A stretch of DNA of 46,219 bases from sequence record NC_007603.1; one strand, given 5' to 3'. Positions 2,432-40,988 of this stretch are shown here, piece by piece (position 1 is the stretch's first letter; every line of letters starts with the position of its first letter). The position numbers were made by a program, and so were the translations under genes. Under the pieces are notes generated by a model that was given only the letters and a program-made list of their open reading frames with translations, was not told the origin of the DNA and did no database searches. Source of the DNA: Escherichia phage Rtp.

Positions 2432-2524
2432 ATGAAGCAATACCCATCAAGTAATCACCATAACGGTCACATCATGCAGTTCTACCGCCACAATCTGAAG
2501 ACTAAGGGAGTATTTGGAAAATGA
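2432..2524 (+). CDS. small ORF (30 aa)
   Basis: ATG 2432 behind cassette leader SD GAGAGGAAAGAG; ATGA overlap with next gene. Confidence 0.4.
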
Positions 2525-2745
2525 TTACAATTAACCTATCAGATAAAGACGCCGCAATCCTGAAGAGCATAGCTCAATTCAGTAACTCCAGCCCATTCGA
2601 GCAGATGAGGGTTGCCAAAGAGGTCGTGACGCAGATTAATAACCAGCAGTTCGACGTCGGCGACTTCGAGTCATCACGTCAGTACGAGGCGCTTAGCGTA
2701 AATGCGGCATACCTTAACAATTGGGATAAGGCGAATAAGAAATGA
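2521..2745 (+). CDS. hypothetical protein (74 aa)
   Basis: ORF track; start overlaps the upstream stop (translational coupling). Confidence 0.5.
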
Positions 2746-2930
2746 AAGATATTAAAACCACAGATCGAAGCGATGACTCCCTAATGTTCCAGGTTGACAG
2801 CAAGACAACGAAAGAGCACATGAATAAACTGGAGTCATTTGGGATTGATGTTGGCGTATCGAAAACAACATATGCCGATAAAATAATCAAATCAGCCATT
2901 CAATATAATGTTGGGTTCGGGGAGGGCTGA
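2742..2930 (+). CDS. hypothetical protein (62 aa)
   Basis: ORF track; ATGA overlap with upstream gene. Confidence 0.5.
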   Translation: MKDIKTTDRSDDSLMFQVDSKTTKEHMNKLESFGIDVGVSKTTYADKIIKSAIQYNVGFGEG

Positions 2931-2933
2931 AGG

Positions 2934-3080
2934 ATGATTTACATTCACACTTACTACACAGGTAAGTTTAATAGCGTTAAGCACGTTCGGCTACATGAGA
3001 AGAAGATCGATGCGATTAAGCAACATGAAGTTCTTGGAGGTGTAGTTATTGAGGCAATGAAAACCCAAAACATCAAATAG
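2934..3080 (+). CDS. small ORF (48 aa)
   Basis: ATG 2934 with GAAGG SD; TAG stop at 3078 is shared with the palindrome; below the ORF-track length cutoff. Confidence 0.4.
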   Translation: MIYIHTYYTGKFNSVKHVRLHEKKIDAIKQHEVLGGVVIEAMKTQNIK

Positions 3081-3120
3081 CACGAATTGCTAAAACAGTA
3101 CCGGGGTAATTTGTTATAGT
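3078..3120 (+). promoter_or_regulatory. palindrome-promoter cassette
   Basis: TAGCACGAATTGCTAAAA at 3078; 22-bp spacer; TATAGT 3115-3120 followed by TACCCCATCGACAAC leader. Confidence 0.5.
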
Positions 3121-3151
3121 TACCCCATCGACAACTACCAAGGATTAAGCC

Positions 3152-3442
3152 ATGAAAACTATTACCGCATTTATCGCAAAAGATGTAATTGACGGAGAAA
3201 TGTCATTATTCGCGTTCGAGCATAAAACGGGATCGCACTGGCACACTTACAGTCATTACATCGTTATCCCAACCAGCGCCTGCACTGGAGACTCACTAAA
3301 TGAGAAGCTGCGTAATTTAATTGAGTTAGTTGAGATAATGGAAGGTTGCGAGGAAAATAACAAAGTACCACGCATGTTCGATATGATTGATCCGGTTTTC
3401 ATTGAGTCTTTAGAGCTTGATTATGATGTGGTATCTAGTTGA
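3152..3442 (+). CDS. hypothetical protein (96 aa)
   Basis: ORF track; SD AAGGA upstream; downstream of a cassette. Confidence 0.55.
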   Translation: MKTITAFIAKDVIDGEMSLFAFEHKTGSHWHTYSHYIVIPTSACTGDSLNEKLRNLIELVEIMEGCEENNKVPRMFDMIDPVFIESLELDYDVVSS

Positions 3443-3459
3443 GGAAGTAGGGTGAGCGA

Positions 3460-3502
3460 TAGCACTTTTTATTAAAAAAGGATCGGACTATCTTGCTATA
3501 GT
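3460..3502 (+). promoter_or_regulatory. palindrome-promoter cassette (variant TAGCACTTTTTATTAAAA)
   Basis: TAGCAC at 3460; TTGCTATAGTTACCCCATCGAAAC at 3493-3516. Confidence 0.45.
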
Positions 3503-3533
3503 TACCCCATCGAAACTAAACGAGGAAGCGCAA

Positions 3534-3713
3534 ATGAAATTTCAACAGAGCAAACCCAAGCTCCAGGCCAACCACTTCGACGGCTACGCGACATTCATCA
3601 TTGCCCAGGCTTGCGGGATGCGTGACGAGCCACAGGTTCACACCATCCACATGACCGAAGAACAGGCCCGAGAGTTGGCGTACGAAATTCTAGAGCAATT
3701 AAACCGAATTTAA
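3534..3713 (+). CDS. small ORF (59 aa)
   Basis: ATG 3534 behind cassette leader with SD GAGGAAG. Confidence 0.45.
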   Translation: MKFQQSKPKLQANHFDGYATFIIAQACGMRDEPQVHTIHMTEEQARELAYEILEQLNRI

Positions 3714-3764
3714 CGCCCATAAAACGCATTCTAACGAACTATAATTTAAGTAAGGTGATTCATC

Positions 3765-3887
3765 ATGGAAGTACAAGAAAGCCCTGTAGAGTGGTGCAAG
3801 CGAATGCAGGACGAGGCCAAAACGGGTGAAGAGGCAATGGCCTACTACGAGTTGACGAAAATTTGGATGGAACGGGAGAAGAAATAA
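3765..3887 (+). CDS. small ORF (40 aa)
   Basis: ATG 3765 with SD AAGGTGA; TAATG overlap with the next ORF. Confidence 0.35.
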   Translation: MEVQESPVEWCKRMQDEAKTGEEAMAYYELTKIWMEREKK

Positions 3888-4030
3888 TGAGCTTCACTGA
3901 ATATGCAATAGCATGCGAAAGGCTGGTCTTTGATATGAAGACCTTCCACTGGTTCATCATTAAAGATTTAATTAAGCCTTATAAGCAAGGCGTCACGCCT
4001 GAACAGTTTGTTAAGTCATTCTACAAATAG
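3887..4030 (+). CDS. small ORF (47 aa)
   Basis: Translationally coupled start; TAG stop shared with the palindrome at 4028. Confidence 0.4.
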   Translation: MSFTEYAIACERLVFDMKTFHWFIIKDLIKPYKQGVTPEQFVKSFYK

Positions 4031-4070
4031 CACTAATTGCTAAACGCAGTCGCCAAGGATGGCATATAAT
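4028..4070 (+). promoter_or_regulatory. palindrome-promoter cassette
   Basis: TAGCACTAATTGCTAAA; 22-bp spacer with inverted repeat GCCAAGGATGGC; TATAAT 4065-4070. Confidence 0.5.
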
Positions 4071-4100
4071 TACCCAATCAACACAACGAGAGATTGAGAG

Positions 4101-4283
4101 ATGAAAAAAGCTAGTGAACTATTCGAGCACTACGTTGAAGTTTTAGGAATGGACATTGATGATGCGGCTTTGGAGCTTTTACGTCTTGGATACCCACCGA
4201 GAGAGATACCACCAATAAGAGATCTTGACTGCTCCGAGGTTATTGAGTTTATTTTCAGTCAGTTACGAACTAATGATAACTAA
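4101..4283 (+). CDS. hypothetical protein (60 aa)
   Basis: ORF track; SD GAGAGATTGAGAG leader. Confidence 0.5.
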   Translation: MKKASELFEHYVEVLGMDIDDAALELLRLGYPPREIPPIRDLDCSEVIEFIFSQLRTNDN

Positions 4284-4298
4284 GCAGGAGATTGAGAC

Positions 4299-4535
4299 AT
4301 GTTCGGACTAAATGACGCATACTTTAACGCGGTAAAACGCCAGGCAGACAAGCTAAATGATGAGTACAGCAAGCTGGGCGCAAAGAAGAAAGATGATAAG
4401 GTTGTTGCCGCACTAATCACACAGATTTGGGGTCCAGTATCAACCTTAATCGCTCGCGATAAATTCGTGTGGATTGCGGGTTATAGAAAAGGTCGCGTGG
4501 GTCATGACGAGAATGGGAATAGTCTTTATGAGTGA
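4299..4535 (+). CDS. hypothetical protein (78 aa)
   Basis: ORF track; SD AGGAGATTGAGAC upstream. Confidence 0.5.
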   Translation: MFGLNDAYFNAVKRQADKLNDEYSKLGAKKKDDKVVAALITQIWGPVSTLIARDKFVWIAGYRKGRVGHDENGNSLYE

Positions 4536-4614
4536 GTTAACAATCTGGTTTATCGCGGGGCTGATTGCTTGGGGTTACTTTTTAATCGCTTAGATGGAGA
4601 TTGTTAAAAAGAGC

Positions 4615-13518: not shown

Positions 13519-13523
13519 TAAAT

Positions 13524-13546
13524 CGCCCTCTTCGGAGGGCTTTTTT
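13524..13546 (+). terminator. rho-independent terminator
   Basis: GCCCTC-TTCG-GAGGGC hairpin plus T6. Confidence 0.65.
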
Positions 13547-13609
13547 ACGTCTGTACCAAATGGATTTGTTGAGTTATAATCACTCAATCAGATAACAAAG
13601 GAGACAAAA

Positions 13610-13855
13610 ATGATTCGTTTAGAACACACTGGCGCTTGCCTCATTGTTTACAAGGGTGAGAAATATTTACCTGGTGACACTTTCGAGGTCGACGTAATTT
13701 GCGACGGACTCAAGCGTTTAATCGCAGAGGGTAAACTCACCATTGAGGGTGACGCTAAGGCAACCAAGCAGATCGCGCAAGAAATTGTTAGCAAGAAAAA
13801 GCGCAAAGAACCGAAAACCATCTCCGAAGCTGAGACTGGTAGCGAGTACAAATAA
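13610..13855 (+). CDS. hypothetical protein (81 aa)
   Basis: ORF track; SD AAGGAG upstream; weak hairpin GGACGC-TTAT-GCGTCC downstream. Confidence 0.5.
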   Translation: MIRLEHTGACLIVYKGEKYLPGDTFEVDVICDGLKRLIAEGKLTIEGDAKATKQIAQEIVSKKKRKEPKTISEAETGSEYK

Positions 13856-14006
13856 ATCACATGGACGCTTATGCGTCCTTTATTGTATGGAGCTAATATG
13901 TTGTTATTTTTAGCAGTTATGTCACTACTAATATCCATTCCGCTCGCATTTGTTGGTCTAATTCTTCTTATTGGATTCATTAAAGGTGGGGCTTCCTGGA
14001 GGTAAC

Positions 14007-14405
14007 ATGAATGATGCAATTTTGGCGTTTATGCGATCGCTTGTTCCTGCGCTCAAAGCAGTGGATGACGAATCAATTAATGTGTGGATCGATTTGGCGC
14101 GTCTCTACGTATGTGCGGATAAGTTTGGTAATGATGCAGATCGCGCTGTGGGCCTTTATGCACTACACCTGATGCTTTCTGATGGAGCATTTAAGGGTGA
14201 GAATGAAGGCTTGGAAACATACAGCCGTAGAATGGCAAGCTACTCACTGAGCGGTGAATTCTCTATCACTTATGATAATCAATCAGCAATCCAGGGTGAC
14301 TTATCATCTTCCTCTTGGGGCCGCATGTACAAGGCACTCCTGCGCAAGAAAGGTGGCGGCTTTGGGTTGATTACTTCCGCTGCTGGCGGTGGGTGCGGTT
14401 GCTGA
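14007..14405 (+). CDS. putative head-tail joining protein
   Basis: ORF track 13971..14405 trimmed to ATG 14007 (GGAGG upstream); position in the head-tail module. Confidence 0.5.
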   Translation: MNDAILAFMRSLVPALKAVDDESINVWIDLARLYVCADKFGNDADRAVGLYALHLMLSDGAFKGENEGLETYSRRMASYSLSGEFSITYDNQSAIQGDLSSSSWGRMYKALLRKKGGGFGLITSAAGGGCGC

Positions 14406-26751: not shown

Positions 26752-27686
26752 TTAATACATATCAGGTAGGTAAGGTAGAGGTATGCCAAGTGTAACGTCT
26801 GGTCTATTTCCAATTCCATATCTAACTATCCTTGTGCCCGTGCCGCTTCTTACGTTACCACCAGTCATTACCACGCCTTTGTTTCTCAACTCCTTGTATG
26901 CAGGTATTGCCCTTGTGTTAAACCCACACCTAAGTATTGGGAAGTATGAGTTTCCTATGCTCTGGTTTGAGCTTGTCAAAGTCACGAACCCAGAAACGAC
27001 AAGAGGCCTCGTTAATGTTGAAAAAGTGCACTGATTGTTCGAGTTGAATATGTTTATTCCAGGCCCTGGGGTTGGCGCAACTTGCTGGAATATTATTAGA
27101 TCAAGAGTTACGCTACCAGGGGTATTCCCAGTATCTTTTGTATTTATATTCGTGCAATATAGAGTTCTGTTACCATCAAACTCAACTGAGACACCTGAGT
27201 TATTCCACTTCCCAAAAGGTATTCCAGCTATTGGCATTGTGTAGCTGTTTGTGAATGATACGGTTCCTGAAAATTTGCAAGTAAGAAGCCTATCCCTTGT
27301 TGTTATAGAGGCAAAATCAGTACTGTCAGCAACGTATATACCTTGCCCAGTTGACGCTCTCAATACCTCTACTACAGTTCCCGAAAATTGCGTAATACGG
27401 TCATTATAAGCATTCTCTCCACCAATAGTTATCGTTCCCTGAGTATTGGTTGCTGAAAATCCATTTATATAATAAATCTCAACCCCCCTATCAAGTTCAA
27501 AACTGTAAGCGCCATTTCTTGGTAGTAAGAATTTTGATGAACCATTGCTACCACTTATTGGGAATGTCTTTGTAAATCCTCCGCTAGAAACGTTGAAGTT
27601 ACCAGCAAAAGACAACCCCCTCATCCCTGAGGTTATCGTCATTGGTTTTCGACCATCATTTAGATCAATGTAGATGCCTTGAGCCA

Positions 27687-27687
<1 letters not shown>
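26752..27687 (-). CDS. putative receptor-binding protein (tail tip), G/S/T/N-rich
   Basis: 311 aa; AAGGAG SD; TAATG overlap with the upstream lipoprotein gene; composition typical of fibre or RBP proteins; located after the J-like gene as expected for T1-like RBP loci (from memory). Confidence 0.45.
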
Positions 27688-28000
<313 letters not shown>

Positions 28001-40694: not shown

Positions 40695-40772
40695 ATGCTT
40701 CCTTTCCAAGCAGGGCCAATGTATCATTCTTTTACTAACTTAAACATTGACAAATAGATAAAGGTGGGTCAC

Positions 40773-40988
40773 ATGAGGGAAGTAATTAACGCCGCTACGG
40801 CATCAACTGGCGGTGCTGCGGTAACTGGCGCGGCAACTGGTCAAATGACTATAGCAATAATCAGCCTTATAGCTCTAATCATTTTTGGAGCTTGGGGTGC
40901 TTACTGGAAGTATAAGGATAGCCAGGCGATTCGACGAGCGCTTGAATCAGGGGATTTAAAGACGGCAATCAAGATAAGGAGCAAGTAA
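40773..40988 (+). CDS. holin (pinholin-like, two hydrophobic segments)
   Basis: 71 aa; Gly/Ala-rich first hydrophobic segment then IAIISLIALIIFGAWGAYW, charged C-terminus; immediately upstream of the endolysin. Confidence 0.55.
   Translation: MREVINAATASTGGAAVTGAATGQMTIAIISLIALIIFGAWGAYWKYKDSQAIRRALESGDLKTAIKIRSK

Follow-up and report, generated by a model that had tools for sequence, protein, structure and literature searches.

Does the short open reading frame that precedes the head-tail adaptor gene of Escherichia phage Rtp encode a small membrane peptide, or is it just an open leader? The window analysed here is the stretch of 46,219 nt of this phage in record NC_007603.1. The preliminary description, which left both readings standing, had placed in it a 35-codon hydrophobic mini-ORF with an ATG at 13898 and a stop at 14003–14005. 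The mini-ORF was recovered with these ends and with the peptide as written, its translation reading MLLFLAVMSLLISIPLAFVGLILLIGFIKGGASWR. It lies among the following features.

13610–13855, plus strand: gene of an 81-aa DUF7444 protein, the upstream neighbour (Pfam PF24231, 5.8e-20; phrog_2716, 6.6e-32).
13863–13878, plus strand: GC-rich hairpin GGACGC-TTAT-GCGTCC with a weak T tail, terminator-like in the scan.
13888–13900, plus strand: 5´ junction repeat TGGAGCTAATATG, made up of the SD GGAG, a 5-nt spacer and ATG, from alignments with relatives.
13898–14005, plus strand: mini-ORF of 35 codons and a stop (ATG 13898–13900, TAA 14003–14005).
13898–14006, plus strand: extra segment of 109 nt, the ORF plus one base, missing from about 100 related genomes.
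13997–14009, plus strand: 3´ junction repeat TGGAGGTAACATG, made up of the adaptor SD GGAGG (13998–14002), the stop, a C and the ATG at 14007.
14007–14405, plus strand: gene of the 132-aa head-tail adaptor, the downstream neighbour (Pfam PF13262, 3.1e-21; phrog_302, 3.1e-35).

The GGAG SD at 13889–13892, followed by the 5-nt spacer, provides a plausible ribosome-binding site (RBS) for the mini-ORF. The SD of the adaptor gene is embedded in W34-R35, the last two sense codons of the mini-ORF, and the adaptor ATG lies one base past the TAA. The mini-ORF had been described as lying after a weak terminator and before the SD of the next gene; the terminator-like hairpin does lie on its 5´ side, but the SD lies inside its 3´ end. 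The list of ORFs also contains a 44-aa version that starts within the hairpin loop, at an ATG at 13871 that has no SD and does not occur in the homologues. This in-frame upstream ATG (13871–13873) results from the loop TTAT-G of Rtp, whereas the loop of the relatives is TTCG and yields no such ATG. The left stem of the hairpin carries an A in Rtp in place of the G of most relatives, so that an A-T pair replaces a G-T wobble. A 123-aa ORF on the minus strand (13648–14019), which overlaps the DUF7444 gene and the mini-ORF and is disrupted in CY1, is most likely spurious.

No promoter-like site was found by sequence scan around 13856–13897. The mini-ORF also has no terminator of its own, the sole hairpin being upstream, and it therefore depends on read-through of the operon. 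The hairpin at 13863–13878 has a 6-bp GC-rich stem and a poor T tail (TTTATTGTAT). It is conserved both in the phages that contain the mini-ORF (carriers) and in those that lack it (non-carriers), is marked as a terminator in the AHP42 and ETEP102 records, and probably serves as a partial terminator or as an attenuator where the capsid genes give way to the head-tail genes. A strong intrinsic terminator (13525–13540; GCCCTC-TTCG-GAGGGC followed by T6) is located directly after the major capsid gene, and the two elements look like stepwise attenuation from the capsid to the head-tail genes. The DUF7444 gene is kept in all relatives, where it is labelled as a hypothetical protein. The adaptor belongs to a family of DUF4054 / E217_gp27-like virion structural proteins.

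The closest sequenced relatives of Rtp are members of Rtpvirus (Drexlerviridae, Braunvirinae), such as IME253, ACG-M12 and the Piccard phages, at 86–92% identity. The alignment of Rtp to IME253, JeanPiccard and SU57 revealed one clean gap that spans 13898–14006, with boundaries that are ambiguous by at most 3 nt because the ATG is repeated. All the 28 near-full-length megablast matches align in two pieces (78–97% coverage), and the interval between the DUF7444 and adaptor genes in 17 IMG/VR relatives is only about 40–50 nt and contains no ORF. In the relatives, GGAGCTAAT-ATG starts the adaptor gene directly, whereas in Rtp it starts the mini-ORF; the 109-nt block terminates in GGAGGTAAC-ATG, which is the adaptor start in Rtp. 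The two 13-nt junctions (13888–13900 and 13997–14009) are identical at 11 of 13 positions, and the displaced adaptor gene obtains from the 3´ end of the mini-ORF an equivalent RBS, which is a near-copy of the original. The start site of the mini-ORF is thus the adaptor start site of the relatives, so that initiation of the peptide would use a site that, as homology shows, drives an essential structural gene. The mini-ORF is dispensable: sister phages lack it, and one of them, IME253, has an adaptor protein 98% identical to that of Rtp.

A patchily distributed segment that is bounded by 13-nt direct repeats, with a hint of lateral exchange (see below), could also be an element that acts at the RNA or DNA level, such as a regulatory RNA, a recombination site or the remnant of a mobile element, in which the open frame is incidental. 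The direct repeats are, however, simply the RBS plus ATG of two adjacent genes. The folding z-score of the segment is unremarkable (-0.94), no Rfam family matches it at E≤1, and no other copy is present in the Rtp genome, in E. coli genomes or in the metagenome and genome collections. The substitutions described below follow a 3-nt periodicity in one frame, which also argues against this explanation, and we regard it as highly improbable.

Only three other genomes contain a homologue of the mini-ORF (34–38 codons, four phages in total), all in the same slot.

ETEP102 (OR979723), Nouzillyvirus-like: MLLFLAVMSLLLFIPLSLVGLILLIGFIKGGPSWR, 35 aa, 86% aa identity to the Rtp peptide; another frame is called in the record (ETEP102_31).
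CY1_Cui-2023 (OQ357823), Christensenvirus: MSLFLAVMSVLLFIPMSLVGLILIAAFINGDLFRRFYE, 38 aa, 57% aa identity to the Rtp peptide; unannotated.
Phagiculus (OR896821), Rogunavirinae: MLIFFLVMTLILFAPLTLIGAILLIGYLSGGRTR, 34 aa, 47% aa identity to the Rtp peptide; hypothetical protein WWD11005.1.

The stop/start arrangement of ETEP102 is like that of Rtp, while the mini-ORF and the adaptor gene overlap by 8 nt in CY1 and by the 4 nt ATGA in Phagiculus. The Phagiculus homologue (E=5.5e-4) is the sole real candidate that emerged when 1.84 billion representative proteins were searched exhaustively with a profile. In tblastn searches of 2.3 Gb of phage DNA, the Phagiculus peptide retrieves ETEP102 with E=1e-3 and the CY1 peptide retrieves it with E=4e-6. 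DNA-pattern and peptide-pattern scans of IMG/VR found no further carrier besides the Rtp sequence itself. Among metagenome contigs, a strict pattern gave 0 matches and a loose pattern gave 53, all of which are chance matches on inspection. No homologue was found in 100,044 representative bacterial and archaeal genomes or in 5,426 complete E. coli genomes, and these searches identified no cellular source. A word-indexed protein search with the 44-aa extended form gave no candidate.

The preliminary description had named a frame that is not conserved in relatives as its refutation, and the outcome is divided: the frame is kept in the few carriers, but the whole ORF is absent from about 100 genomes. 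Within the four carriers, the start and the stop are conserved, and no frameshift or internal stop is present; the remaining two forward frames contain stops. Rtp and ETEP102 differ at 15 nt, of which 4, 1 and 10 fall at codon positions 1, 2 and 3 (p=0.0085 for the excess at position 3). The changed codons comprise seven synonymous and five conservative replacement codons, with a dN/dS of 0.13. Rtp differs from CY1 at 30 nt (9, 7 and 14 by codon position) and ETEP102 differs from CY1 at 20 nt (5, 6 and 9), with a dN/dS of 0.4–0.5 for both pairs. Rtp and Phagiculus differ at 50 of 102 nt (49%) but are identical at 16 of 34 amino acids. The differences in this pair are distributed as 18, 7 and 25 over the codon positions (p=0.0017 for the deficit at position 2), the only indel is one terminal codon, and the hydrophobic profile is unchanged. 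None of 20,000 neutral simulations of the Rtp-Phagiculus pair retained the open frame, the amino acid identity and the hydrophobicity jointly (P<5e-5).

Nine residues are invariant in the four peptides (M1, F4, V7, M8, P15, G20, I22, L23 and G30), and a G/AxxxG pattern is kept at positions 26–30. The last codons (GG or WR) are doubly constrained because the RBS of the next gene is also located there. In Rtp the pattern is G26xxxG30, and the basic residues are K29 and R35. Judged from the aligned sequences, conservation in the three other phages is far beyond neutral expectation. With statistics drawn from four members and about 105 sites, the frame looks selected as a protein, under purifying selection.

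The Rtp peptide has a GRAVY of 1.94 and a best 19-residue Kyte-Doolittle window of 2.83; the best windows of the four peptides (2.71–2.89) are long enough to span the bilayer. AlphaFold2 models a single continuous helix from residue 2 to residue 34 with a pLDDT of 89.7. The hydropathy windows and the model support the single transmembrane helix predicted earlier for this peptide. Basic residues and charges are confined to the C-terminus in all four peptides and none is N-terminal, a distribution for which the positive-inside rule predicts an N-out/C-in topology. The conserved proline, glycine and small-xxx-small pattern suggests the binding of another transmembrane helix. Among the 361 ORFs of 25–60 aa in the Rtp genome, three reach the hydrophobicity of the mini-ORF, the other two being antisense inside large genes. 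T occupies 21 of the 35 second codon positions of the mini-ORF, and T-rich DNA yields hydrophobic codons by default.

A lipoprotein is ruled out by the lack of a cysteine, and the peptide is unlike a signal peptide, having no N-terminal charge. Searches of Pfam, PHROGs, NCBIfam, PADLOC and PDB sequences with the peptide returned nothing significant, and the Rtp genome contains no paralogue at the protein or DNA level. A membrane-anchored form of the adaptor produced by frameshift fusion was also rejected: the adaptor frame is +1 relative to the mini-ORF in Rtp and -1 in Phagiculus. A comparison of the 411 Rtp ORFs of at least 30 aa revealed no carrier-specific partner gene, since the mini-ORF is the only one common to the carriers and absent from three sister non-carriers.

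Part of this evidence is also compatible with a translated spacer or leader that feeds ribosomes to the adaptor gene by coupling, or with neutral baggage, the hydrophobicity being a by-product of T-rich DNA. In each of the four carriers, the stop adjoins or overlaps the start of the next gene, and the RBS is embedded in the 3´ end of the ORF. The insert is composed of 41% T and 38% GC, 15% of its shuffles stay open (chance openness of a single sequence), and in about 100 relatives the adaptor is expressed directly, with no such ORF before it. However, a coupling spacer need not keep its amino acid sequence, whereas in these phages position-2 changes are depleted and the amino acid identity far exceeds the neutral level at 49% nucleotide divergence. 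The length is held at 34–38 codons, Pro15, Gly20 and the basic residues of the C-terminus are all kept, and the peptide is still retained in Phagiculus, relative to which the synonymous sites are saturated. The adaptor gene also retains its own strong SD, so that coupling is not needed. We consider a spacer, leader or neutral origin unlikely. Between the two readings offered at the outset, the evidence favours the membrane peptide, for which the frame, length, start, helix and C-terminal basic residues are all kept, and the open leader is weakened.

Taken together, the mini-ORF appears, on balance, to be a genuine, optional protein-coding micro-gene of T1-like coliphages, which forms a 109-nt cassette between an RBS and the start codon of the adaptor gene. 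The best reading of its product would be a late-expressed, translationally coupled inner-membrane micro-protein, encoded by what may be termed a promoterless "micro-moron". Transcription would occur late, on read-through of the structural operon from capsid to tail genes past the leaky weak hairpin. Translation would start at the resident adaptor-type RBS at roughly the level of the adaptor gene, and the ribosomes would then be handed on to the adaptor gene; from the arrangement of stop and start, we infer that adaptor translation may be coupled to the mini-ORF. A 35-residue product is released before it emerges from the ribosome tunnel, and small bacterial membrane proteins insert post-translationally. 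Being released before it leaves the tunnel, the peptide would have to insert post-translationally, and it would enter the inner membrane as a single helix with the N-terminus out and the C-terminus in.

Once in the membrane, the helix might, late in infection, contact a membrane protein of the host or of the phage through Pro15, Gly20 and the G/AxxxG of positions 26–30. The effect could be a tuning of holin triggering and lysis timing, or an influence on another membrane-level process of importance in some hosts only, on a host-specific membrane factor or on a defence effector. Given late expression in a virulent phage, the modulation of a late membrane event would be the most plausible function; a specific role can be proposed with low confidence. 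Late expression argues against classical superinfection exclusion. Since more than 100 relatives lack the mini-ORF, any benefit must be conditional or small.

Several known systems share part of these properties. Morons are extra genes located between genes that are adjacent in related phages, for example in lambda- and HK97-like phages, and HK97 gp15 is a membrane example. The mini-ORF likewise separates two genes that directly adjoin each other in about 100 relatives, is dispensable, has a GC content of 38% compared with 44% for the genome, and would encode a membrane protein as many morons do. In contrast to morons, it is not an autonomous transcription unit with its own promoter and terminator, it starts from the RBS and start codon already in place and supplies the displaced gene with a new RBS, and its 109 nt make it far smaller than a typical moron. 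Because Rtp is virulent, the mini-ORF also cannot be expressed from a prophage, unlike morons.

AcrZ, MgtS, MgrB, KdpF, CydX and YohP are small bacterial inner-membrane proteins with one membrane span, which modulate larger proteins of the membrane. The mini-ORF product resembles this type in its length (30–50 residues for such proteins), its one transmembrane helix, and a basic C-terminus that predicts a C-in orientation. It also has the small-xxx-small and proline features that are typical of helix-helix binders, and genes of this kind are routinely missed by annotation. However, Pfam, NCBIfam and PDB searches gave no sequence relationship (the best match is MgtS-like with E=9.7), and the mini-ORF is encoded by a phage and presumably expressed late.

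Small phage lysis proteins include holins and pinholins, antiholins such as T4 RI, and lysis peptides of ssRNA phages such as the 37-aa LysM. The mini-ORF product is similarly a small transmembrane peptide, presumably late, for which control of timing at the membrane level is plausible. In contrast, the mini-ORF is far from the holin, endolysin and spanin genes (about 40.8–41.8 kb), is shorter than the known dsDNA-phage holins, and is not similar to the Rtp holin or to any PHROG lysis family. The distance to the lysis cassette is about 27 kb, and a lysis role is therefore not favoured. An origin of the mini-ORF by duplication, for example of the holin transmembrane segment, was rejected, as there is no similarity to the Rtp holin (phrog_2877, 40764–40988).

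Type I toxins (Fst/Ldr, TisB, Hok/Gef, Ibs and ShoB) consist of a small hydrophobic helix with a short charged tail. By analogy with them, the mini-ORF might encode a membrane-damaging peptide that causes late depolarisation, host shutdown or earlier holin triggering. In its size, in a nearly all-hydrophobic helix with a proline at mid-length and in a short C-terminal tail of polar and basic residues, it would resemble these toxins, and placement in a late operon would restrict toxicity to the end of the cycle. However, Pfam, NCBIfam and PADLOC searches, toxin families included, gave no match at E≤10, and no homologue is present in the 5,426 E. coli or the 100,044 representative bacterial and archaeal genomes. 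Type I toxins are associated with an antitoxin RNA or an architecture of translational repression, whereas the mini-ORF is located in a structural operon behind a canonical strong RBS, and nothing in its sequence points to an antisense RNA, to a structured leader or to translational repression. The check for an antisense RNA found no Rfam match, no unusual RNA structure and no antisense promoter in a scan of the sequence. We consider a toxin-like peptide improbable and retain the reading as an inner-membrane micro-protein.

The four carriers fall into four clades of the adaptor-protein tree, each beside non-carriers: Rtp beside IME253, CY1 beside IME542, ETEP102 beside ESCO41 and CJ19, and Phagiculus beside AHP42 and BECP10. 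The peptide tree broadly agrees with the flanks and has Phagiculus (38–58%) as its outgroup. The Phagiculus copy is saturated at synonymous sites, which indicates an old gene. In comparisons of Rtp, ETEP102 and CY1, however, the synonymous divergence of the mini-ORF (pS 0.37–0.53) is lower than that of the flanking genes (0.61–0.83). At conserved residues, identical codons are used in 74% of cases between Rtp and ETEP102, compared with 53% in the flanks (p=0.033), and in 76% between ETEP102 and CY1, compared with 43% in the flanks (p=0.004). A distinctive upstream intergenic stretch, TAAATCACATGGACGC, is common to Rtp and ETEP102. These data, which comprise about 27 synonymous sites, hint at lateral exchange among the Rtp, ETEP102 and CY1 lineages.

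We infer that gain and loss are both mechanistically easy, by recombination between the RBS copies or in the conserved flanks, and the patchy distribution would result from both loss and gain through recombination at the duplicated RBS and these flanks. The IME542/CY1 junction was considered as a test of gain versus loss and was rejected as uninformative; junctions do not discriminate between the two because an indel between direct repeats is symmetric in both directions. Megablast alignments of ETEP102 to its nearest relatives (ESCO41 and CJ19) begin only about 100 nt into the adaptor gene, and its segment with the capsid gene, the DUF7444 gene and the mini-ORF is instead about 74–77% identical to Rtp. 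A mosaic boundary may lie near the mini-ORF in this phage.

A more specific proposal is that the cassette is an RBS-to-RBS unit that is self-contained, is exchanged horizontally between co-infecting Drexlerviridae through recombination at the two RBS copies and the conserved flanks, and is kept for a host-specific advantage of the membrane peptide, which might neutralise a membrane-based effector of abortive infection or defence or might retune lysis timing. We regard this proposal as decidedly doubtful; if it were true, the cassette would represent a new minimal class of phage accessory gene that is invisible to standard annotation. A micro-gene of this form can fit into a tightly packed structural operon without disturbing expression, since it seizes one RBS and provides a copy, and it is easily lost again. 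It offers a small and genetically clean test case for late membrane micro-proteins, because a 109-nt deletion recreates the natural junction of the non-carriers. The mini-ORF family is a small new family within a known kind of element, and its practical stakes are modest.

Other parts of these genomes also vary in gene content. The capsid-gene region (Rtp 13519–13609 and its counterparts) is a hot spot of insertion. In CY1, a gene of a 202-aa 'DNA-binding protein' separates the major capsid and DUF7444 genes (segment 612–1220), and one IMG/VR relative has at the same place an ORF (about 1003–1179) that, from its sequence alone, may be AP2/HNH-like. Between its cement and major capsid genes, Phagiculus contains two additional genes (2479–4595), one for a product of 163 aa and one for a 513-aa 'tail fiber protein'. 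The gene of a 179-aa polynucleotide kinase/phosphatase (Rtp 1444–1983; phrog_415, 1e-59) is common to ETEP102 and CY1 and absent from IME253, IME542, AHP42 and Phagiculus, a patchy distribution with no strict match to that of the mini-ORF. On the minus strand at 26752–27965, downstream of the tail-tip gene, Rtp encodes a membrane protein of 314 aa (phrog_1265) next to a protein of 92 aa; the two, we presume, could be a receptor-binding / exclusion pair. This pair is present in ETEP102, CY1, IME542 and AHP42, while IME253 has a different module there, and its distribution is unrelated to that of the mini-ORF.

The mini-ORF also appears to be missing from the Rtp record, as judged from gene numbering and a protein collection. 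Notes in the AHP42 record cite Rtp numbers, namely rtp26 (the gene before the major head gene), YP_398971 (major head protein) and YP_398984 (HNH endonuclease), and these agree with the order of the genes only when the mini-ORF is left out of the count. Exact look-ups of six possible peptide forms found none of them in a collection of 15 billion proteins, in which only the wrong-frame ETEP102_31 and the Phagiculus protein are present. If the peptide is made, its gene is absent from, or wrongly called in, the records of three carriers (Rtp, ETEP102 and CY1), and of the four records only that of Phagiculus lists it. ETEP102_31 is a 40-aa ORF in a different frame over the mini-ORF (segment 1506–1628), a frame that is closed by a TAA in Rtp. 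In CY1, the adaptor call CY1_00053 (start 1623) extends 8 codons upstream into the mini-ORF, while the conserved adaptor start is MNEQ.
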